Of a DNA stretch of 64,000 nt, positions 6,845 to 48,678 are shown piece by piece (position 1 is the stretch's first letter; each line of letters begins with the position of its first letter). The DNA comes from Lysobacteraceae bacterium SCN 69-320 (lineage in GTDB: Bacteria > Pseudomonadota > Gammaproteobacteria > Xanthomonadales > Rhodanobacteraceae). Position numbers and translations under genes: made by a program. The stretch lies in the NCBI GenBank assembly GCA_001725155.1, contig MEFP01000017.1, forward strand, positions 2,338 through 66,337. Reading direction: 5' to 3'. Below the pieces are notes generated by a model. It was not told where the DNA came from. It made no database searches and saw nothing but the letters and a program-made list of their open reading frames with translations.

Positions 6845-8509
6845 ATGACTGAGGCCGCGAATATCGCTGGCGCGCTCAGCGCGATGGCGCGGCAGCGGCC
6901 CGAGGCCGTCGCATTGCGCGTGCCGCGACGCGCGTCGCGCAGTTCGGTACTGCCCGAATATCTGGACATGAGCTATGCCGAGCTCGATGCGTCCAGCGAC
7001 CGCGATGCGGCGGCCCTGGCCGCAGCCGGCATCGTGCGCGGCATGAAGACGGCGCTGATGGTGCGCCCCGGACGCGAGCTGTTCTCGCTGATGTTCGCGC
7101 TGTTCAAGCTCGGTGCCGTGCCGGTGCTGATCGACCCGGGCATAGACCGGCGCGCGCTGCGCGAGTGTCTGGCCGAAGCCGCACCCAGCGCATTCGTCGG
7201 CATTCCGCTCGCGCAGATCGCGCGGCTCGTGCTGGGCTGGGCGCGCGCGTCGGTGCGCATCGTCGTGACCGTCGGCGGAGCGTTCGGCTGGGGCGGGCTG
7301 CGCCTGGCTCGCCTGCGCGAAGCCGTGCCGGCGCAAGGCTTCGTCGCTGCGCCGACGCGGCCCGACGAACTTGCGGCCGTGCTGTTCACGTCGGGCTCGA
7401 CCGGCGTGCCCAAGGGCGTGGAATACCTGCACCGGCATTTCCTGGCCCAGGTCGAACTGCTGCGCGAGGCGTTCGCGCTGTCGCCGGGCCACGTCAACAT
7501 GCCGACGTTTCCGCCGTTCGCGCTGTTCGATCCGGCGCTGGGCTCCACGTCTGTGATTCCGGACATGGACCCGACGCGGCCGGCGAGCGCCGATCCGCGC
7601 AAGCTCGTCGCCGCGATCGAGCGCTACGGCGTCGACATGCTGTTCGGATCGCCCGCGCTGCTCGACACCTTGTCGCGCCATTGCGAGCGCCATGGCGTGC
7701 GCCTGCCGACCCTGCGCCGCGTGATCTCCGCCGGCGCGCCGGTCGCACCGGCCATCCTCGCGCGACTCAAGCCCTGGCTGGATCCGGCCGCGGAAATCTA
7801 CACGCCCTACGGCGCGACCGAATGCCTGCCGCTGGCCGTCATCGAAAGCGCCGAGCTGCTCGGCGACACGCGCGCACAGACCGAACGCGGCGCCGGCACC
7901 TGCGTGGGCCGGCCGCTCGCGGCCAACTGCGTGCGCATCATCGCGATCACCGACGAGCCGATCGCCGACTGGAGCGGCGTGCGCGAGCTCGGCGTCGGCG
8001 AGGTCGGCGAGATCACCGTCGCCGGACCGACCACGACCGAGGCCTATCACGCGCGGCCGGCGGCGACGGCGCTGGCCAAGATCCGCGACGGCGCGCGCAT
8101 CGTGCACCGCATGGGCGATCTCGGTTATTTCGATGCGCTGGGCCGGCTCTGGTTCTGCGGACGCAAGTCGCAGCGCGTGCGTGCGGCCGGCGGCGACCTG
8201 TATACCGAGCAGGTCGAGCCGATCTTCAACGCGATCGCCGGCGTGCGCCGCAGCGCGCTGGTCGGCGTCGGCACGGCGGGTGCGCAGCGGCCGGTGCTGC
8301 TGCTGGAGCTCGAATCCGCAGCCGCCGACGCGGCCGAGCGCGTCGAAGCCGAGGCGCGCAACCGCGCCGCGGCGTTCGCGCATACACGCGGCATCGGCGA
8401 CGTGCTGTTCCACGCGCAGTTCCCGGTCGACATCCGCCACAACGCCAAGATCGGCCGCGAAGCGCTGGCGCGCTGGGCCGGGACCAGGCTGGCCAAAGCC
8501 GCGCGCTAG
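6845..8509 (+). CDS. oleC: OleC, olefin beta-lactone synthetase (ANL adenylate-forming family)
   Basis: FTSGSTGVPKGV, TFPPFALF, YGATECLP, HRMGDLG, GRKSQRV, PVDIRHNAKIGRE. Confidence 0.9.
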   Translation: MTEAANIAGALSAMARQRPEAVALRVPRRASRSSVLPEYLDMSYAELDASSDRDAAALAAAGIVRGMKTALMVRPGRELFSLMFALFKLGAVPVLIDPGIDRRALRECLAEAAPSAFVGIPLAQIARLVLGWARASVRIVVTVGGAFGWGGLRLARLREAVPAQGFVAAPTRPDELAAVLFTSGSTGVPKGVEYLHRHFLAQVELLREAFALSPGHVNMPTFPPFALFDPALGSTSVIPDMDPTRPASADPRKLVAAIERYGVDMLFGSPALLDTLSRHCERHGVRLPTLRRVISAGAPVAPAILARLKPWLDPAAEIYTPYGATECLPLAVIESAELLGDTRAQTERGAGTCVGRPLAANCVRIIAITDEPIADWSGVRELGVGEVGEITVAGPTTTEAYHARPAATALAKIRDGARIVHRMGDLGYFDALGRLWFCGRKSQRVRAAGGDLYTEQVEPIFNAIAGVRRSALVGVGTAGAQRPVLLLELESAAADAAERVEAEARNRAAAFAHTRGIGDVLFHAQFPVDIRHNAKIGREALARWAGTRLAKAAR

Positions 8510-8634
8510 CGGCGACTGCGGCCCGCTCGTCGCGGTGGACCGCGCGCCTAGCGCGCCACCGGCGACGGCGAGCAGATTGGCGCGCAGCCTCGCCGGCCGC
8601 TTCGGTTGCGGTTCTTCGCGGCAGGGGCTTCGAT

Positions 8635-8669
8635 GTTGCGGTTCGCCTGCGGCTCGCCGCAACGTACGG
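8635..8669 (-). repeat. REP-like element, same family as 949-1022
   Basis: The reverse complement ccgtacgttgcggcgagccgcaggcgaaccgcaac aligns with 990-1022. Confidence 0.6.
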
Positions 8670-8770
8670 CGCCGGCGGCGCGACCAAAGTCGCCGCCGCC
8701 GCGCTTGCAACGGCGTGGCTGTATGCGCTTTGCTTGCGGTCCCGTTTCCGTTCCCACGCATCGAATTCCT

Positions 8771-9640
8771 ATGCAAGCGATCCGCGCCGGCTTCGTCGGC
8801 CTCGGCGCCATGGGCTGGTCCATGGCTGCTCACCTCCACCGGCGCGGCCTGCTCGCCGCCGTCGCCAACCGCAGCCGCGACAAGGCCGAACGCTTCGCCG
8901 CGGAACACGCCGGCGTCGTCGCGGCCGATGTGGACACCATTGCGCAACACTGCAACGTCATCGCGCTGTGCGTCAGCGCCGATGCCGACGTGCTTGCGGT
9001 CAGCCGCGCGATCGCGGCGAACGCGGCGCCCGGCACCGTCGTCGTGGACCATTCGACCGTGTCGTCGACGACGGCGCACGAAGCCGCCGCGCTGCTGCGC
9101 GCGGCCGGTGGCGATTTCGTCGACGCGCCGGTGTCCGGCGGCGTCGAAGGTGCGCGCAACGGCAAGCTTTCCGTCATGGCCGGCGCCGAGCCGGCGGCCC
9201 TGGAGCGCGTGCGACCCGTGCTGGAGACCTACGCAGCGCGGGTCACCCACATGGGCCCGGTCGGCGCCGGCCAGAACACCAAGGCCGTGAACCAGGTGCT
9301 GATCGCCGGCATCGCCCAGGCGGTCACCGAGGGGCTCGCGCTCGGCGAGGCGCTGGGGCTGGACCCGGCCGCGCTGCTGCCGACCCTCGGCGCCGGCGCC
9401 GCCGGCAACTGGTTCCTGGAGAAGCGCGGCGCAACCATGCTGGCGAACCAGTTCACGGTCGGCTTCAAGCTGGGGCTGCTGCACAAGGATCTCGGCATCG
9501 TGCGCCAGCTCGCGCTGGCCGCGGGCACCGACCGCAGCGTCATCGACAAGTCGCTGGCCGACTACGCGAAGCTCATGGCCCTGGGCCATGCGGACGAAGA
9601 CATCTCCGCGCTGATCCGGCTGAAGCGGCCGCAAGGCTGA
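8771..9640 (+). CDS. NAD(P)-dependent beta-hydroxyacid dehydrogenase (3-hydroxyisobutyrate dehydrogenase/6PGDH-like family)
   Basis: GFVGLGAMG, DHSTV, DAPVSGG, catalytic Lys in GQNTKAVNQ, GFKLGLLHKDL. Start moved to ATG 8771. Confidence 0.88.
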   Translation: MQAIRAGFVGLGAMGWSMAAHLHRRGLLAAVANRSRDKAERFAAEHAGVVAADVDTIAQHCNVIALCVSADADVLAVSRAIAANAAPGTVVVDHSTVSSTTAHEAAALLRAAGGDFVDAPVSGGVEGARNGKLSVMAGAEPAALERVRPVLETYAARVTHMGPVGAGQNTKAVNQVLIAGIAQAVTEGLALGEALGLDPAALLPTLGAGAAGNWFLEKRGATMLANQFTVGFKLGLLHKDLGIVRQLALAAGTDRSVIDKSLADYAKLMALGHADEDISALIRLKRPQG

Positions 9641-9735
9641 GCCGGTGTGCGCGCCGTCACGCCGGCGCCATGTCGTGCTGGTTTCTGCACGGGTGGCGGC
9701 GTAAAACGGAACGCCTCTCGCGACGGAGCTTCACC

Positions 9736-11058
9736 ATGCGCCTCACTGCTGCACTCGCTGCGGCCGCCTTGCTGGCGGCCGCGGCCACGCCCAGCCCGGC
9801 GGCACCGCCGGCCGACCTGTCCCTGGTCCGCGTGCCGAACGCCTCGACCACGTTCTCCACCCCGGTAGCCCTGCGCGCGCCGAACGACGGCAGCGGCCGC
9901 CTGTTCGTCGTCGAAAAGGGCGGCTCCATCAAGATCATCAAGAACGGCGCGTTGCTGGCCACGCCGTTCCTGACGCGCACGGTCACCTCCTCCAGCGAAA
10001 GCGGACTGCTCGGCCTGGCCTTCCATCCGAACTTCGGCAAGGCCGGCCTGCCGCACAACAACGAGTTCTACGTCTTCTACACGCGGCCGTCCGCCGATCC
10101 CAGGCTCGGCACGACGCCGGACCAGGTCGTCGCACGCTATACGGTGCCGTCGCTGGATTCCGACGTGGCCGATACCAACGGCACCATCGTGCTGCGTATT
10201 CCGGATCTGGCCGGCAACCACAACGGCGGCGACATCCATTTCGGCCGCGACGGCTACCTGTACATCTCCTCGGGCGACAGCGGCGACCAGAACAACCCGC
10301 ACGGCTTCGCCGAATGCCTGTGGAAGAAGCCGGCCGACAGCAACCGCAACACCTGCGGCACGAATCCCAGCGGCATCCAGTACTACCTGCTCGGCAAGAT
10401 GCTGCGCATCGACGTGGACAATCGCGGCGGCACGGTCACGGCCGACATGTGCGGCTCCAACGGCATCGCGCCGGCCGAATACTCGATTCCGGCCGGCAAC
10501 CCGCATGTGGCCACGAGCAACACCTGCGACGAGATCTGGGCGCACGGCTTCCGCAATCCCTGGCGCTTCAGCTTCGACCGTGCCGACGGCCGCATGGTGA
10601 TCGGCGACGTCGGTCAGGGCAGCTACGAGGAAATCACGGTCAACCCCGACGCCACCGGCGGTCTCGACCACGGCTGGAGCCGCTGCGAAGGCCGTCATTA
10701 CTTCACGACCTCGGGCACCGGAACGACTTGCCCGTCGGTGACCTCGACCGTCGCACCGGTGCTGGAATACAGCCATTCGGCCGGCTGCGCCGTGACCGGC
10801 GGCTACGTCTACCGCGGACCGTATGCGCCGATGCGCGGCACGTATTTCTATGCCGACTCCTGCAGCAGCGATCTGTGGTGGTCCGAATCCAGCGGCGCCA
10901 CCTGGGATTCCGGCGGCATCAACCGACTGACCGGACTGGCCACGGGCTCGGTCTACGGCTTCGGCGAGGACGTCGACGGCAACATCTACATCACGCGCTC
11001 CAACGGCCAGATCCACCGCATCATGACCGACGGCATCTTCGCCGACGGATTCCAGTAA
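9736..11058 (+). CDS. Secreted PQQ-dependent sugar dehydrogenase (GSDH/sGDH family) with C-terminal DGIFADGFQ tag
   Basis: Signal peptide; RLFVVEKGG, ESGLLGLAFHP, NHNGG.IHFG.DGYLYIS.GD, GKMLRIDVD, EIWAHGFRNPWRFSFD, DVGQ..YEE, GGYVYRG. The real start is ATG 9736, not the 1297-aa track ORF. Confidence 0.88.
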   Translation: MRLTAALAAAALLAAAATPSPAAPPADLSLVRVPNASTTFSTPVALRAPNDGSGRLFVVEKGGSIKIIKNGALLATPFLTRTVTSSSESGLLGLAFHPNFGKAGLPHNNEFYVFYTRPSADPRLGTTPDQVVARYTVPSLDSDVADTNGTIVLRIPDLAGNHNGGDIHFGRDGYLYISSGDSGDQNNPHGFAECLWKKPADSNRNTCGTNPSGIQYYLLGKMLRIDVDNRGGTVTADMCGSNGIAPAEYSIPAGNPHVATSNTCDEIWAHGFRNPWRFSFDRADGRMVIGDVGQGSYEEITVNPDATGGLDHGWSRCEGRHYFTTSGTGTTCPSVTSTVAPVLEYSHSAGCAVTGGYVYRGPYAPMRGTYFYADSCSSDLWWSESSGATWDSGGINRLTGLATGSVYGFGEDVDGNIYITRSNGQIHRIMTDGIFADGFQ

Positions 11059-14189: not shown

Positions 14190-15902
14190 ATGACCACCCT
14201 GTTGCGCGCACTGATCGCTTGCGTGGCCATCGGCCTGGCCCTGCCCGTTGCCGCCGCCGACCTGATCTTCCGCGACGGCTACGAATTTCCCGTGCGCCCG
14301 TCCAGCCGCGGCGAAGCCTCGCGCTTCCTGACCCAGGCCACATTCGGCCCGAGCGACGCCGACATCGACGCCTTGTCCGCAAGCAGCTACGCCGCCTGGA
14401 TAGCCGCACAGGTCGAGCTGCCGCCGAGCTATTTCCTGCCCTACATGCGCAGCCAGGCCGGCATCACCGATCCGCTGCAGCCGATTCCGTTCGCCGAGTT
14501 CCTGCAGGCCTGGTTCGTACGCGTGCTGTCCGCACCCGATCAGCTGCGCCAGCGCGTCGCGTTCGCGTTCAGCGAAATCCTCGTCGTGTCCGAGCGCGGC
14601 AACGGCCTGGGCAACGACGGCCTCGCGCTCGGCGCGTACTACGACATCCTGCTGCGCCATGCGCTCGGCAACTACCGCGACCTGCTCGAGGACGTGACCC
14701 TGAGCCCGGCCATGGGCCGCTATCTGAGCATGTACCGCAATCGCAAACCCGATGCGGCCAACAACATCCAGGCGGACGAGAACTACGCGCGCGAGGTCAT
14801 GCAGCTGTTCTCGATCGGCCTGGTCAAGCTCAACCGCGACGGCACGCCGGTGCTCGTGAACGGCCAGACCGTGCCGACCTACGACGGCGACGTGGTGCGC
14901 AATCTCGCGCGCGTGTTCACGGGCTGGGCCTGCCATTGCGGCGCCGGCCAGCAGTGCGTGCCCGATCCGTTCCCGGTCGAGCCGTTCACCTGCAGCACCG
15001 AGCACGAGATGGTGCCGTACGAGGCGTATCACGACCGCGACCCGAAGCGTCTGTTCGACGGCGTCGTGCTGCCGGCCGGCAGCGACGCACGGCCGGAGCT
15101 CGAACGCGCGCTCGACGCCCTGTTCCAGCATCCGAACGTCGCGCCGTTCGTCTCGCGCCAGCTGATCCAGCGACTCGTCACGAGCAACCCGTCGCCGGCT
15201 TACGTGGAGCGCGTCGCCGCGGTATTCGAGAACGACGGCCGCGGCGTACGCGGCAATCTGGCCGCGACGGTGTCGGCGATCCTGCGCGACCGCGAGGCGC
15301 GCGAGGGCCAGCGCAGTTCGATCAGCTTCGGCAAGGTGCGCGAGCCGCTGCTGCGACTGACCGCGCTGTGGCGCGCGTTCGACGTGGTCTGGGATCACGA
15401 CCCGCTGTTCCCCGACGACCGCGAGATCCACGAAAGCCACAACCAGTCGCCGCTGCTTTCGCCGTCGGTGTTCAACTTCTTCTCGCCGGGCTACAGCCCC
15501 GGCGGCGTACTGGCGGCTCCCGGGCTGGTCGCGCCGGAAATGCAGATCGTCACGGCGAACTTCGCGATACGCCTGGCCAACGACGTGTCCGGCCGCGTGT
15601 TCTGGAGCTATCGCGGCGGACCGATGGACGATCCGCAGTTCGTCGGCGTGCGCTTGGTCCAGCTCGCGCGCTGGGAGCAGTCGATACGGCCCGCGGCGGG
15701 CTCGTCCCAGGCGCCGGCCGGCGCGCTCGACCGCCTGCTCGATCGCAGTACCGAACTGCTGCTCGGCGGCCGGATCTCGCCGGCCCTGCGCAGCCGCATC
15801 CGCGCGCGCCTCGATGCCTTGCCGGCCGACGAGCCGCTGCGCCGCGTGCAGAACGCGATCTACCTGATCGCGACGTCCCCCGAATTCGCCGTGCAGCGCT
15901 AG
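14190..15902 (+). CDS. DUF1800 family protein, exported
   Basis: RFLTQATFG, DQLRQRVAFA.SEILVVS, VTLSPAMGRYL, DENYAREVMQLFSIGL, HPNVAPFVSRQLIQRLVTSNPSPAYV, GKVREP; SD aaggagg. Confidence 0.9.
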   Translation: MTTLLRALIACVAIGLALPVAAADLIFRDGYEFPVRPSSRGEASRFLTQATFGPSDADIDALSASSYAAWIAAQVELPPSYFLPYMRSQAGITDPLQPIPFAEFLQAWFVRVLSAPDQLRQRVAFAFSEILVVSERGNGLGNDGLALGAYYDILLRHALGNYRDLLEDVTLSPAMGRYLSMYRNRKPDAANNIQADENYAREVMQLFSIGLVKLNRDGTPVLVNGQTVPTYDGDVVRNLARVFTGWACHCGAGQQCVPDPFPVEPFTCSTEHEMVPYEAYHDRDPKRLFDGVVLPAGSDARPELERALDALFQHPNVAPFVSRQLIQRLVTSNPSPAYVERVAAVFENDGRGVRGNLAATVSAILRDREAREGQRSSISFGKVREPLLRLTALWRAFDVVWDHDPLFPDDREIHESHNQSPLLSPSVFNFFSPGYSPGGVLAAPGLVAPEMQIVTANFAIRLANDVSGRVFWSYRGGPMDDPQFVGVRLVQLARWEQSIRPAAGSSQAPAGALDRLLDRSTELLLGGRISPALRSRIRARLDALPADEPLRRVQNAIYLIATSPEFAVQR

Positions 15903-45505: not shown

Positions 45506-46846
45506 ATGTCACGCACTTTCCTGCTGCCGCTCATGCTGCTGGCCGCTACAGCCAACGCCGCGACCTATCAGGTCGGACCCACGCGCACCTATGCCAGCCT
45601 GAACCAGCTGTTCGCCGCGCAGGATCTCGGCGGCGGCGATGTCGTCGAAGTCGACGGCAACGTGACCTATGCCGGCGGCGTCGTGGTGCCGTCCGGCGAC
45701 GGCGGCAGTCCCGGCAACCCGGTCGTGATCCGCGGCATCCGCGTCAACGGCCAGCGCCCGCACATCGCCGGCGGCACGAACACGGTGGAGTTCCGCCAGT
45801 CCAATTACCTCGTGTTCGAGGGCTTCGAGGTCAGCGGCGGCAGCGCGCGCTGCATCCTGCAGGGCGCCCACGAAGTGACCGTGCGCGACAGCGTGATCCA
45901 CGCCTGCCCGGCTCACGGCATCCTCAGCACCGATCAGCTGTCGGGTTCGTTCACCCTGGAATATTCCGAGATCTACGACGCCGGCGCCGGCACCTCGCAG
46001 CATCCCCTGTACATCCAGAGCGACGAGATCGCCTGGCCCGGCTCGGTGTTCCGCATGCGCTACAACTACGTGCACGACGGCACCGGCGGCAACCTGCTGA
46101 AGTGCCGCCACGAACGCGCCGAGATCCACTACAACTGGTTCCAGGGCGCGGCCTATCACGAGCTGGAACTCATAGGCCCGGACGAGAACACGCAGCAGGC
46201 CGGCTGGAGCCGCGACCTCGTGCGCGAGGACCAGGACGTCGTCGGCAACGTCATCGTGCACAGCAATCCGGCTTTCGGCGCCGTCATCCGCATCGGCGGC
46301 GACGGCACCGGCGTCAGCAAGGGCCGCGCGCGTTTCGTCAACAACACCTTCCTGCTGACCTCGGGCACGGACACGACGGTGTTCCGCATCTTCCAGGAAA
46401 TGCAGTCGGTGGAGATGCACAACAATGTCATCGACGCGACTGCCGGCGGCGTGCCGCGCATCATCCGTGCGGTCGCCGGCGAGCTGGCCTGGACCGACGG
46501 CCGCCAGATCCGCGGCAGCAACAACTGGATAGAAAGCACGGCGACGTTCGTGCCGGATGCGAGCGAGTGGAGCGCTACCCTGAGCGGCACGAATCCCGGT
46601 TTCGTCGACGCCGCCGGCTACGACCTGCGCCCGGCCGCCGCCAGCGTGCTGCGCGATGCCGGCAACGGCGCTCCGGCCGGTGCGCCGGGCTTCGGTTTCC
46701 CGACTCCGCTGTTTCCGCCGGCTGTCCAGCCGCAGCGCGCGGCGACCGCGCCCGGCGCCGCGCTCGCACGTCCCGTCGACGCCGCGATCGACATCGGTGC
46801 GTTCGAGCGCGCCGGCGATGTCATTTTCGCGAACGGGTTTCAGTGA
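45506..46846 (+). CDS. Secreted right-handed parallel beta-helix protein with choice-of-anchor-Q-like end and C-terminal DVIFANGFQ tag
   Basis: Signal peptide ANA|ATYQVGP; Asn-ladder repeats (RYNYVHDG, HYNWF, VGNVI, VNNTF, HNNVI); PGFVD...YDLRP...S.L.DAG and IDIGAFE. Start moved to ATG 45506. Confidence 0.82.
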   Translation: MSRTFLLPLMLLAATANAATYQVGPTRTYASLNQLFAAQDLGGGDVVEVDGNVTYAGGVVVPSGDGGSPGNPVVIRGIRVNGQRPHIAGGTNTVEFRQSNYLVFEGFEVSGGSARCILQGAHEVTVRDSVIHACPAHGILSTDQLSGSFTLEYSEIYDAGAGTSQHPLYIQSDEIAWPGSVFRMRYNYVHDGTGGNLLKCRHERAEIHYNWFQGAAYHELELIGPDENTQQAGWSRDLVREDQDVVGNVIVHSNPAFGAVIRIGGDGTGVSKGRARFVNNTFLLTSGTDTTVFRIFQEMQSVEMHNNVIDATAGGVPRIIRAVAGELAWTDGRQIRGSNNWIESTATFVPDASEWSATLSGTNPGFVDAAGYDLRPAAASVLRDAGNGAPAGAPGFGFPTPLFPPAVQPQRAATAPGAALARPVDAAIDIGAFERAGDVIFANGFQ

Positions 46847-46990: not shown

Positions 46991-47265
46991 TTCGATCGGC
47001 AGCAGGCGATATTGCCGCGAAGACGTGCACGGTCGTGCGTCCCGAAAATTCATCGCCGTGCGCGTCGAAAGAATCCGAAGCGCCGCCCTGCCGCTTTGAA
47101 TGCCGACGGCGAGGCGATGACGAAATCGTCCGCATCGCGGAACTCGCCATCCCTGTCGCAAGTCACTGGATCGCGCGCATCGCGGCATGAATTTTCCATT
47201 CTCAGAGACCGTTCCGGCGAGCGTTTCCTGTTGCCGGCGACGGCGTGCGTGCGCAGGAAGCTGCC

Positions 47266-47835
47266 ATGTCATCAATGGTCCGTATCGCCGCATGGCTGGC
47301 CTGGCCGGTCTTCGCGATCGCCGTGCTGTTCCTGCTGCTGCTGGTTTTCCTTGCCGCGAGCCTCAGTTGCACTTGCGTCGACTGCAGTAGTTACAACGCG
47401 AGCAGGGCGGGCATCTGGAAGCTCGCGATGTGCGTCGAGGCGTTTCAGCTGGACTGCGGCCGTCTGCCGGATCAGCTCGACGAGCTGATCAGCGAAGTGC
47501 GCCCTGAAGGTTGTGCAGGGCCCTGGGCGCGGGCGTCGGATCTTCGCGATCCGTATGGCAGCCGCTTCGTCTATCGGCGTTCCGCAGACGGCAGCAGCTT
47601 CGAAGTGCGCGGCATCGGACGCGACCGGGTCTATGGCAGCGCCGACGACGTGACGACGAGCGACCGGCCCTGGCCCTGGCTCGAGACGTTCTGGCGCAGG
47701 CCGCTGTGGGACTGCGTGATCGTGACCCTGCCGTGGTTCTCGATCCCGCTGGGGCCGCCGTTGTGGCTCATGGCTGCGATCGTCCGCCGCATACACCGGA
47801 CAGCGCGCCGGTGCGAGGCGACGGCCACAGAGTGA
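47266..47835 (+). CDS. GspG C-terminal (T2SSG)-like domain protein, paralog 1, hydrophobic segments at both ends
   Basis: L...VEAF.LDCGRLP..LDEL, DPYGSRFVY, GIGRDRVYGSADD match the GspG head pattern; no G/F-x3-E prepilin site. Confidence 0.72.
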   Translation: MSSMVRIAAWLAWPVFAIAVLFLLLLVFLAASLSCTCVDCSSYNASRAGIWKLAMCVEAFQLDCGRLPDQLDELISEVRPEGCAGPWARASDLRDPYGSRFVYRRSADGSSFEVRGIGRDRVYGSADDVTTSDRPWPWLETFWRRPLWDCVIVTLPWFSIPLGPPLWLMAAIVRRIHRTARRCEATATE

Positions 47836-48084
47836 ATGCGAGGGAATCTGCCGCGCAGCGTGAATACGGCCGAACTCACCGGGCCGTGTGAATGCGGCGG
47901 AATTTGCCGCGCGGTGCAACTGTGGAGGAATGCGCCACGCGGTGAGAAGGAAGCGGAACTTGCCAGTCTGCTCGCCGGTCGATTGAACGCCGCTTCACGG
48001 CAACCCCCGGCCCCTTTTCATGCATGCCCGACGGTCGCTCTCTCGCGGCGGCTGCGCCGGTGCGTGCGCGTGCAGGAGTCGCTC

Positions 48085-48678
48085 ATGTCGTCATGGATCC
48101 GTTACTTGGGTGCCGGCCTCGAGGTTTGTGCCGGGCTGCTGTTGCTCGCCGCGCTGGTCTCCTGGCTCAGCCTTATGGGCGGCTGCGATCTCGAACACGG
48201 CCGCTACCGCGCCGCGCAGGTCCAGGCGGAGCGGCTTGCGCTGGTAGTCGAGGGATTTCGCAACGACTGCGGCCGTTTGCCGGATCAGCTCGACGAGTTG
48301 TTCGGCGTCGTGCGCGACCGTAACTGTTTCACGACGCCGCCGCGCTTCTCGCAGCTCGTCGATCCCTGGGGCAGTCGCTTCGTCTACTGGCGCGCCGACG
48401 ACAGCAGGACGTTCGAGGTGCGCTCGGTCGGCCGTGACCGTACCTACGGCAGCTTCGATGATGCGACCAGCGGCGGCTGGACCTGGCCTTGGCCGCAGCC
48501 GCCATGGTCCTGGGCGGAGCGCGGCCGGCGCGTCGCTCCGATAGTGATGCTCGTGCTCGCGTTGCTGCTGCTGGGGGCTCTGACGCTGCGGCTGCTCGAG
48601 TTCGCGATCCGCCTCGTCCGTGCGGTCTGGCGCTGGCTCGGGCCGGCCGGAGCCGGCGCGTCGCAGCCCGGGGAATGA
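48085..48678 (+). CDS. GspG C-terminal (T2SSG)-like domain protein, paralog 2, hydrophobic segments at both ends
   Basis: L...VEGFRNDCGRLP..LDEL, DPWGSRFVY, SVGRDRTYGSFDD; C-terminal TM IVMLVLALLLLGALTL. Start moved to ATG 48085. Confidence 0.75.
   Translation: MSSWIRYLGAGLEVCAGLLLLAALVSWLSLMGGCDLEHGRYRAAQVQAERLALVVEGFRNDCGRLPDQLDELFGVVRDRNCFTTPPRFSQLVDPWGSRFVYWRADDSRTFEVRSVGRDRTYGSFDDATSGGWTWPWPQPPWSWAERGRRVAPIVMLVLALLLLGALTLRLLEFAIRLVRAVWRWLGPAGAGASQPGE

Follow-up and report, generated by a model that had tools for sequence, protein, structure and literature searches.

The choice-of-anchor Q domain (NCBIfam NF041518) is followed by different sorting signals in different lineages. Known sorting signals include the tripartite C-terminal signals, several of which have dedicated enzymes (MYXO-CTERM/myxosortase, PEP-CTERM/exosortase, GlyGly-CTERM/rhombosortase, IPTL-CTERM and LPXTG/sortase). 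In Bacteroidota, the type A C-terminal domain (CTD; TIGR04183) is a signal without a transmembrane (TM) helix that is read after Sec export by the type IX secretion system (T9SS). For type II secretion (T2SS), by contrast, no general linear signal is known, and how Gram-negative bacteria choose which folded periplasmic proteins to place on the surface or outside is still largely open.

We analyzed a stretch of 64,000 nucleotides (hereafter, the window) from contig MEFP01000017.1 of Lysobacteraceae bacterium SCN 69-320 (GCA_001725155.1), in which a gene for an exported protein ends in a nine-residue peptide. The relevant features, in window coordinates, are as follows.

45506..46846 (+), gene for a 446-aa exported protein (P0001), a predicted right-handed beta-helix and probably a polysaccharide lyase or glycosidase-like enzyme
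45506..45559 (+), Sec signal peptide (MSRTFLLPLMLLAATANA | A), read from the sequence by its basic residue, hydrophobic core and A-N-A site
46619..46807 (+), DIGAFE-type cap related to the choice-of-anchor Q domain
46808..46816 (+), three-residue linker (RAG) between cap and tag
46817..46843 (+), nine-residue C-terminal tag DVIFANGFQ (consensus D-x-[IL]-F-x-[ND]-G-F-[EQD])
11029..11058 (+), second copy of the tag, at the C-terminus (..MTDGIFADGFQ) of another exported protein (ORF 7165..11058)
14259..14285 (+), rare N-terminal copy of the tag (AA|DLIFRDGYE), directly after the signal peptide of a 570-aa protein

The ORF of P0001 (45338/45506..46846, + strand) ends ...NPGFVDAAGYDLRPAAASVLRDAGNG...ARPVDAAIDIGAFERAGDVIFANGFQ*. 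DIGAFE occupies aa 429-434 (nt 46790-46807), the linker aa 435-437 and the tag aa 438-446, and the stop codon is at 46844-46846. An AlphaFold 2 (AF2) model is a confident all-beta helix (pLDDT 94.1, pTM 0.92), although the N-terminal block has low confidence. Foldseek matches GH136, PL9 and PL6 beta-helix enzymes at E-values of 5e-7 to 1e-4, but with TM-scores of only 0.4-0.5. The Pfam Beta_helix model (PF13229) scores 22.9 bits, which is below the gathering score of 25.9, but many orthologues carry a precomputed hit to it. The protein has 1376 homologues at E<=1e-5.

An earlier note, made from the sequence alone, had proposed that the tag sits where a sorting signal is expected, after a choice-of-anchor-Q-like domain. 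The observation is confirmed, but "choice-of-anchor-Q-like" is fair only as "like". NF041518 scores 11.6 bits (E 0.26) in a direct search and 14.4 bits in a six-frame search of the genome, against a cut-off of 25, and covers only model positions 42-57 of 58. No other NCBIfam model was hit at E<=10. The N-terminal DPLLxPLxxNGGxT segment of the domain was not aligned, and P0001 has NPGFVDAAG at that place. However, a profile-profile comparison (hhalign) of the family cap against 86 true Q domains gives 96.6% and E 5.9e-10 over Q columns 19-62, with an 18-residue insertion. In this comparison, the Y-D-L-R-P...S-V-L-R-D-A-G part upstream of DIGAFE aligns to the middle of true Q domains, which have a central P..SPaxDaG motif. 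Both alignments were anchored on the terminal DxGAxE motif, so the last six columns are not independent evidence. In addition, a family member from another lineage (P0355) scores 24.1 bits on NF041518 over model positions 10-57.

The tag is far beyond chance in this genome. Of 85 occurrences of F-x-[ND]-G-F in all six-frame ORFs of at least 100 aa, 48 lie within 5 residues of a stop codon, and 100 of 131 hits of a relaxed position matrix lie within 12 residues of a stop. A reversed-pattern DNA control gives 0-1 hits per genome. The tag ends 49 (strict) to about 100 (relaxed) exported proteins, or about 2% of the proteome, and nearly all 49 strict carriers have Sec, Tat or lipoprotein signal peptides. 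Forty carriers hit 44 Pfam families, including endonuclease I, reprolysin-like proteases, a Tat-type phospholipase C, GH44 and M14. The tag is not as common at mature N-termini as at C-termini. Against the roughly 100 C-terminal copies, we found one clear N-terminal case (24.9 bits; the copy at 14259..14285), one probable case about 15 residues after a signal peptide, and about 10 copies between domains.

The tag is conserved at the peptide level. It is kept in 117 of 121 close orthologues of P0001, down to about 51% identity, while the linker varies and is 3-5 residues long in 89 of them. The codons differ between copies, so we rejected an origin as a DNA repeat or 3′ cassette. AF2 confidence falls to a mean pLDDT of 80 over residues 431-440 and 47 over residues 441-446, which is consistent with a flexible tail. 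Literature searches for the peptide and for a conserved C-terminal motif in Xanthomonadales found nothing relevant, and papers that mention choice-of-anchor use the term only as an annotation label, judging from titles and abstracts.

We next asked what occupies the position of the tag in other proteins. Of the 14 Q domains above the cut-off in this genome, 12 are C-terminal. Ten of these are followed within 11-23 residues by the tag, and two by a degenerate D-x-I-F remnant. In homologues of P0001 itself, the position directly after DIGAFE holds MYXO-CTERM (TIGR03901, 20.2-28.4 bits, cut-off 20), T9SS type A domains (TIGR04183, 36.9 bits in homologue P0277 and 41.4 bits in P0332, cut-off 23), dockerin-like repeats (P0270, P0294 and P0319), other domains or nothing. 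True Q-domain proteins carry the tag, an IPTL-CTERM-like tail (TIGR04174, 18.8 bits, below the cut-off of 20.5), an LPVTG+TM+RRR tail (read from the sequence, with no NCBIfam sorting-signal hit) or dockerin-like repeats (P0190, P0208, P0211 and P0230). Among 387 homologues, 174 carry the tag and 27 carry a C-terminal TM-plus-basic anchor, but none carries both. Moreover, the roughly 12 IPTL-CTERM-like proteins of this genome have no tag. Thus, both tests suggested in the earlier note, namely a choice-of-anchor relationship and mutual exclusivity with known anchors, came out in its favor, and its inference that the tag occupies the anchor slot is supported. However, P0001 is not formally a member of NF041518, and in many homologues the slot holds ordinary domains or nothing (16 of 150 representatives end within 6 residues of DIGAFE). 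Slot occupancy is therefore circumstantial evidence of sorting and not proof. Choice-of-anchor domains can be used more generally as bait to discover sorting signals that no model yet describes. A second short candidate, the Chloroflexota-like ...[FY]LPL[IV]xR tail, turned up in the same way.

Within Gammaproteobacteria, the tag is restricted to one order. Counts run up to 71 per genome in many families of this order, and are at background (at most 4) in 199 other gammaproteobacterial families. The tag occurs almost only in genomes with a canonical T2SS whose GspC has a PDZ domain. Full-length PDZ-bearing GspC is present in 83 of 86 tag-rich genomes and 21 of 65 tag-poor ones (counted by hand), and canonical GspL (PF05134) in 81 of 86 and 27 of 65, respectively, or, by genus, 30/32 against 10/32. 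The GspL protein of this genome was too divergent to serve as a probe, and PF03934 (T2SSK) was uninformative as a counter of T2SS copies, since this 63-position model also hits ComEA/ComEC-like helix-hairpin-helix regions and gives hits in Bacillus and Lactococcus controls. Local contrasts agree with the association. In one genus (g10), one genome has 4 tags with GspC and GspL and the other has none of the three, and in one family (f2), only genus g68 is tag-rich and only it has PDZ-GspC. However, the association is necessary-but-not-sufficient at best, as another family (f7) has full-length PDZ-GspC and GspL but only 0-7 tags. Three tag-rich genomes (G031, G032 and G153) lack a detectable GspC, and the association is not corrected for phylogeny or genome size.

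This bacterium has two T2SS gene sets. The canonical system is encoded by gspC(PDZ)-D-E and gspF on contig 3 and gspG-N on contig 5. The non-canonical system on contig 1 has a GspE with an MshEN domain, a PilMN-like L, T2SSM_b and its own secretin. We rejected it as the machine that travels with the tag because its L protein is present in 40 of 41 relatives, including all tag-free ones.

Given these data, the tag is most likely an address label that acts after Sec or Tat export on folded proteins in the periplasm. As it has no membrane helix, we infer that it is read non-covalently as an exposed peptide and is not cut by an intramembrane sortase, and that it routes its cargo to the cell surface or the medium through the canonical T2SS. 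Tat cargo appears to be typical of type II secretion, as is lipoprotein cargo (PMC12802150). We consider this explanation somewhat more likely than not, in the absence of any experimental data on localization, cleavage or binding of the tag. The PDZ domain of GspC is the most concrete candidate reader, but this step is speculation. Classical PDZ ligands end in a hydrophobic residue at the free carboxylate, while the tag ends in E/Q/D, is followed by 0-12 further residues, and occurs rarely at an N-terminus or between domains. If the nonapeptide were a linear, transferable targeting signal read by this PDZ domain or by another periplasmic part of the machine, which the data leave possible but do not make likely, it would be the first simple sequence signal for T2SS cargo selection. 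It would then predict about 100 substrates per genome across a whole bacterial order and could be usable as a very small secretion or display tag.

Other explanations are less likely. The tag could be a retention label that, like a very short dockerin, docks proteins non-covalently by strand addition on a shared outer-membrane or surface partner, such as a lectin-like protein, an LPS-binding protein or a beta-barrel, after they have left the periplasm by whatever route. The dockerin-like repeats found in the same slot, the occurrence of the tag at either chain end and between domains, and the lipoproteins among its carriers fit this possibility, and MYXO-CTERM and T9SS type A signals also end in surface attachment (PMC11980579 for MYXO-CTERM). 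However, many carriers are classical soluble exoenzymes such as nucleases, proteases and phospholipase C. No candidate receptor was found, and the phyletic link is to a secretion machine and not to a surface protein, although surface partners were not searched for.

It is also conceivable, but unlikely, that the conserved Asx-Gly is a site of cleavage or transpeptidation by a soluble periplasmic or surface enzyme, resembling asparaginyl-endopeptidase-type ligases, which recognize Asx followed by a short tail, and that the protein is thereby matured or attached covalently to a cell-envelope acceptor. [ND]-G is nearly invariant (in the orthologues, position 2 is D or N in 91 of 117 and G follows in 111 of 117), only 0-5 residues usually follow G-F, and known sorting signals in the same slot are all cleaved (PMC11980579; 10.1101/2023.06.07.544157). 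On the other hand, S, H and Y occur at the Asx position in orthologues, variants with D-D-F or G-D-F are common, and cleavage at copies at an N-terminus or between domains would destroy them or split the protein; no candidate enzyme was identified or tested. We doubt still more that the tail has no sorting role and is a lineage-specific structural or stability element, for example a protease-protection cap or a folding aid for terminal beta-strands, that follows the cap only because the protein ends there. The tail does often follow directly on a beta-strand-like segment, and many homologues manage with nothing after DIGAFE. However, it is attached to at least 44 unrelated folds, is predicted to be floppy, is found almost only on exported proteins, is mutually exclusive with known sorting signals and tracks a secretion system phyletically.

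In comparison with described systems, the true Q domains of this genome and of related metagenome proteins are followed by the tag, and those elsewhere by an IPTL-CTERM-like tail or an LPVTG-type anchor, but the tag is not among the signals that NCBIfam models. [quoted passage not shown] The canonical T2SS that travels with the tag likewise has a GspC with a C-terminal PDZ domain, although here the link is inferred from co-occurrence only, and the VesB signal lies in a folded Ig-like domain and not in a linear peptide.

Like the tripartite signals, the tag sits at the extreme C-terminus of many unrelated exported proteins of one lineage, with dozens per genome, and one of these signals, MYXO-CTERM, occupies the same slot in homologues of P0001. 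MYXO-CTERM cargo also reaches the surface by T2SS (PMC11980579). By contrast, the tag has only 9 residues, with no transmembrane helix and no basic cytoplasmic tail, and so cannot be presented to an intramembrane enzyme. It also tolerates trailing residues and occasionally an N-terminal or internal position. The T9SS type A CTD resembles the tag in lacking a TM helix, in being used by dozens to hundreds of cargo proteins and in filling the same slot in Bacteroidota homologues of P0001. However, the T9SS CTD is a folded beta-sandwich of 70-100 residues, while the tag is a floppy nonapeptide in a gammaproteobacterial order where the associated machine is a T2SS.

The + strand ORF ending at window position 46846 encodes, from its ATG, a 446-aa protein (hereafter P0001) with a typical Sec signal peptide, MSRTFLLPLMLLAATANA|A, a long beta-rich body and the C-terminus ...NPGFVDAAGYDLRPAAASVLRDAGNG...ARPVDAAIDIGAFE-RAG-DVIFANGFQ-stop. 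The earlier note, which had read this protein end as a choice-of-anchor-Q-like segment followed by a short tag, therefore quoted the sequence correctly. The features of this locus are as follows.

45506-46846 (+), the gene for P0001
46790-46807 (+), the DIGAFE motif, residues 429-434
46817-46843 (+), the tag DVIFANGFQ, residues 438-446
47245-47835 and 47836-48678 (+), two tandem genes directly downstream of the tagged gene, encoding proteins with a T2SS pseudopilin G core (PF08334, 34.8 and 29.1 bits) that lack the usual G-F-T-L-x-E prepilin motif at the start

Pfam gives only a sub-threshold Beta_helix hit for P0001, 22.9 bits against a gathering score of 25.9. However, an AlphaFold2 model built on 60 homologues is a confident right-handed beta-helix, with mean pLDDT 94.1 and pTM 0.92. 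The best matches of the model among solved structures are beta-helix carbohydrate-active enzymes, namely GH136 lacto-N-biosidases, pectate lyase Pel9A and PL6 alginate/chondroitin lyases. Although the E-values run from 5e-7 to 1e-4, the TM-scores are only 0.4-0.5, so only the fold class is assigned. Model confidence drops to 80 over residues 431-440 and to 47 over residues 441-446, and the tag is predicted to be a floppy tail beyond the cap. The family is large, with 1376 proteins at E<=1e-5 in a word-indexed search and 1079 cluster representatives at E<=1e-3 in an exhaustive search. The best named relatives are Tahibacter, Dokdonella and unnamed Rhodanobacteraceae or Xanthomonadales.

Formally, P0001 has no choice-of-anchor Q domain. 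The NCBIfam model for this domain, NF041518, scores 11.6 bits (E 0.26) in hmmscan and 14.4 bits in a genome-wide search, against a curated cut-off of 25, and only the last 16 of its 58 positions align. The cap is nevertheless related to the domain. A profile of the cap from 205 family members aligns to a profile of 86 true Q domains with 96.6% probability (E 5.9e-10), covering Q columns 19-62, i.e., the P..SP..DAG part, the Arg and DxGAxE. Both alignments were anchored on the terminal motif, so that part of the score is circular. The P0001 family has an 18-residue insertion and no counterpart of the N-terminal DPLLxPLxxNGG part. A family member of myxobacterial type, P0355, scores 24.1 bits on NF041518 over positions 10-57. 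“Q-like” is a fair description of P0001, but “member” is not.

The tag is real and modular. In six-frame ORFs of at least 100 aa, F-x-[ND]-G-F occurs 85 times, and 48 of these occurrences lie within five residues of the stop, where chance would give about two. Forty-nine ORFs end in the strict motif, and nearly all of them have a Sec signal peptide, a twin-arginine signal (for example MFDRRDFLK... or MAGTSRREFLR...) or a lipobox. With a relaxed position matrix, 100 of 131 hits at 17 bits or more lie within 12 residues of a stop, including variants such as IFxDGL[EQ], IFxGDF[EQ] and IFxDDFE. Forty carriers match 44 different Pfam families, among them beta-helix, endonuclease I, reprolysin-like metalloproteases, lamin-tail-domain proteins, a Tat-type phospholipase C, GH44, M14 carboxypeptidase, Calx-beta, glucose/sorbosone dehydrogenase and DUF1501.

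Within the orthologues of P0001, the tag is kept in 117 of 121 proteins, down to about 51% identity. F0 is present in 112, G+3 in 111, F+4 in 117, D-3 in 89 and I/L-1 in 106, whereas the 3-5-residue linker varies. The DNA encoding different copies uses different codons, so it is the peptide that is conserved, not a DNA repeat.

Copies elsewhere in a chain are rare. One clear copy (AA|DLIFRDGYE, window 14259-14285) lies directly after the signal peptide of a 570-aa protein, another lies about 15 residues after a signal peptide, and about ten lie at domain boundaries. Two large paralogues, a 1669-aa ORF on genome contig C6 (+) and a 1672-aa ORF on contig C15 (-), carry the tag (DIVVIFKNGFES) internally, followed by a shared domain of about 146 aa of unknown kind (...LELARF...RSAW...). 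Here the tag marks a domain boundary and not the chain end. A giant protein on contig C9 (+, 5860-aa ORF) carries two tag copies in tandem within its last 50 residues (DLLFRSGFD-D-DALFCDDFE), followed by about 33 more residues. The 570-aa protein with the tag at its mature N-terminus may belong to DUF1800, a family that usually occurs as a pair with DUF1501. A Tat-signal protein that looks like a DUF1501 (C19:605205-606569) carries the tag at its C-terminus, and one of the 40 scanned carriers hit PF07394, although the tally does not say which. The two genes are not adjacent.

We next asked what follows true Q domains in this genome. Of 14 Q domains over the cut-off, two are internal, and the other 12 are followed by the stop codon within 11-23 residues. 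Ten of these tails are the tag or a recognisable variant: SPEDVIFRNGF, DDRIFSDGLQAP, ADRVFADGLDVMVRP, HSYVDVIFRSGFQAG, HDDVIFAGDFQ, GAVVDRIFGNGFQ, REASLFADGMESLLLR, PYDDRIFVDDFEALTARM, APGGTIFRNGFD and RADTIFHGDFE.... The remaining two, LGEDTIFYWDGEDH and TPGDRIFYADLGG, are degenerate remnants that keep D-x-I-F. In addition, a sub-threshold Q-like cap (C12:60817-60933, - strand, 19.5 bits) is followed by DAIFAGDFEP, but the frame then runs on for about 125 Arg/Ala-rich residues instead of stopping, which may reflect a lost stop codon or a decaying gene.

The genome also has about 12 proteins, on contigs C4, C8, C10, C18, C19 and C30, with an IPTL-CTERM-like tail ([VI]P.L[SDNG], a membrane helix, then RRR). 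None of these has a tag in its last 200 residues, and none of the C-terminal Q domains is followed by such a tail. Therefore, at least two kinds of C-terminal signal coexist in this genome and do not mix. About 17 of the roughly 100 tags follow a Q-type or DxGAxE cap, and the tag is not tied to that domain.

Across lineages, we first searched for true Q-domain proteins with the Q domain of a paralogue, although this word-indexed search is biased towards relatives. Of the 117 hits other than the query's own sequence (P0123-P0239), 60 end in the tag, typically DxGAVERQ-xPEDVIFRNGFDSS. Another hit, P0159, has an IPTL-CTERM-like tail (TIGR04174 18.8 bits, just under the 20.5 cut-off) next to a Q domain of 84 bits, and P0186 has LPVTG, a membrane helix and RRR, which gave no NCBIfam sorting-signal hit and was read from the sequence. 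Dockerin-like repeats occur in P0190, P0208, P0211 and P0230. The others have short tails such as ...LFLPLVQL or ...WIYLPLVIR, larger domains, or nothing.

We then examined the protein's own family as 150 representatives of 50%-identity clusters. Directly after DIGAFE, five have the tag. Twenty-five, by our hydropathy rule, have a Cys-containing motif, membrane helix and Arg tail, and the MYXO-CTERM model TIGR03901 is over its cut-off in P0274 (28.4 bits), P0295 (20.2 bits) and P0355 (25.2 bits). T9SS type A domains (TIGR04183) occur in P0277 (36.9 bits) and P0332 (41.4 bits), dockerin-like repeats in P0270, P0294 and P0319, and a short ...VYIPIIKR tail in P0318. Other representatives have what appear by eye, from the tail sequences alone, to be Calx-beta-like, FG-GAP-like or Ig-like modules, and 16 have nothing. 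The short tails without a membrane helix that fill this slot after DxGAxE in other lineages (P0156, P0164, P0238, P0213, P0214 and P0318; ...LFLPLVQL, ...LFLPLVRRFP, ...WIYLPLVIR, ...KLYFPLILNK, ...RIPIVLR and ...VYIPIIKR) may be another uncatalogued C-terminal signal.

Pooling 387 homologues gives 174 with the tag, 27 with a membrane helix and basic tail, and none with both. Thus, the tag was not found to co-occur with such anchors instead of replacing them, and the tabulation supports the proposal of the earlier note that the tag occupies the anchor slot.

To determine where the tag occurs, we scanned genomes for F-x-[ND]-G-F-[EQDH]-stop as a DNA pattern, for which a reversed-pattern control gives 0-2 hits per genome. 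All 16 genomes of the same genus have 7-52 hits, whereas most other genera of the same family have 0-1. Many other families of the order have up to 71 per genome. By contrast, one genome from each of 199 other families of the class has at most 4, which is background. Within the class, the tag is thus an invention of one order, with a patchy distribution inside it.

The genome has two T2SS gene sets. One is a non-canonical cluster (C1:137650-148703) with a GspE with an MshEN domain, a PilM/PilN-like L protein, T2SSM_b, four GFSLLE-type pseudopilins, its own secretin and a small lipoprotein. Its L protein is present in 40 of 41 relatives, including every tag-free genome, so this is the core system of the order and does not discriminate. 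The other is a canonical Gsp system (C3:159038-172357 and C5:7821-13600) that is split into at least three pieces: gspC-D-E, then gspF about 7.5 kb away with an amino-acid permease gene between them, and gspG-N on another contig. Its GspC carries a C-terminal PDZ domain (PF13180, 30 bits, cut-off 27).

In 151 genomes of the order, canonical GspL (PF05134, E<=1e-7) is present in 81 of 86 genomes with at least 5 pattern hits and in 27 of 65 with fewer, or, by genus, in 30/32 against 10/32. Full-length PDZ-GspC is present in 83 of 86 against 21 of 65, as counted by hand. These counts are not corrected for phylogeny or for genome size. Local contrasts agree with them. In one genus (g10), one genome has 4 hits together with GspC and GspL, and the other has none of the three. 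In one family (f2), only a single genus (g68) is tag-rich and only it has PDZ-GspC; the weak GspC-query hits in the other genera of this family cover only the PDZ region and lie in ORFs of about 285-690 aa that lack the GspC N-terminal part. Another family (f7) is a clear exception, as it has full-length PDZ-GspC and GspL but only 0-7 hits. The canonical system thus looks necessary but not sufficient.

The tag is a conserved, portable nonapeptide, predicted to be floppy, whose position is used by other lineages for surface-sorting signals, with which it is mutually exclusive, and it is phyletically tied to a PDZ-GspC type II system. We infer that it most likely acts after Sec or Tat export, on folded proteins in the periplasm. 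Tat cargo, lipoproteins and classical exoenzymes among the carriers fit type II secretion. Given that it has no membrane helix, it cannot be presented to an intramembrane sortase, so it is probably read non-covalently. The PDZ domain of GspC is a concrete, though speculative, candidate reader. In V. cholerae, the EpsC PDZ domain is needed for one substrate only, VesB, which carries a transferable PDZ-dependent signal (PMC12369372), and the signals that fill the same slot in Myxococcota deliver cargo to the surface through the T2SS (PMC11980579). Against the PDZ idea, the tag ends in an acidic or amide residue, tolerates trailing residues and occasionally sits at an N-terminus. Alternatively, the tag could be a surface-retention (docking) peptide, an Asx-Gly processing or ligation site, or a purely structural tail.

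No NCBIfam model other than that of the Q domain touches the tail at E<=10, and we found no description of the tag in text searches. The particular contribution of our analysis is the slot argument, which we consider established, while the function of the tag remains inferred. C-terminal sorting signals of exported bacterial proteins are already known. However, the T9SS CTD is a domain and the tripartite signals have a membrane helix and a basic tail, whereas the tag is a nonapeptide without a membrane helix.
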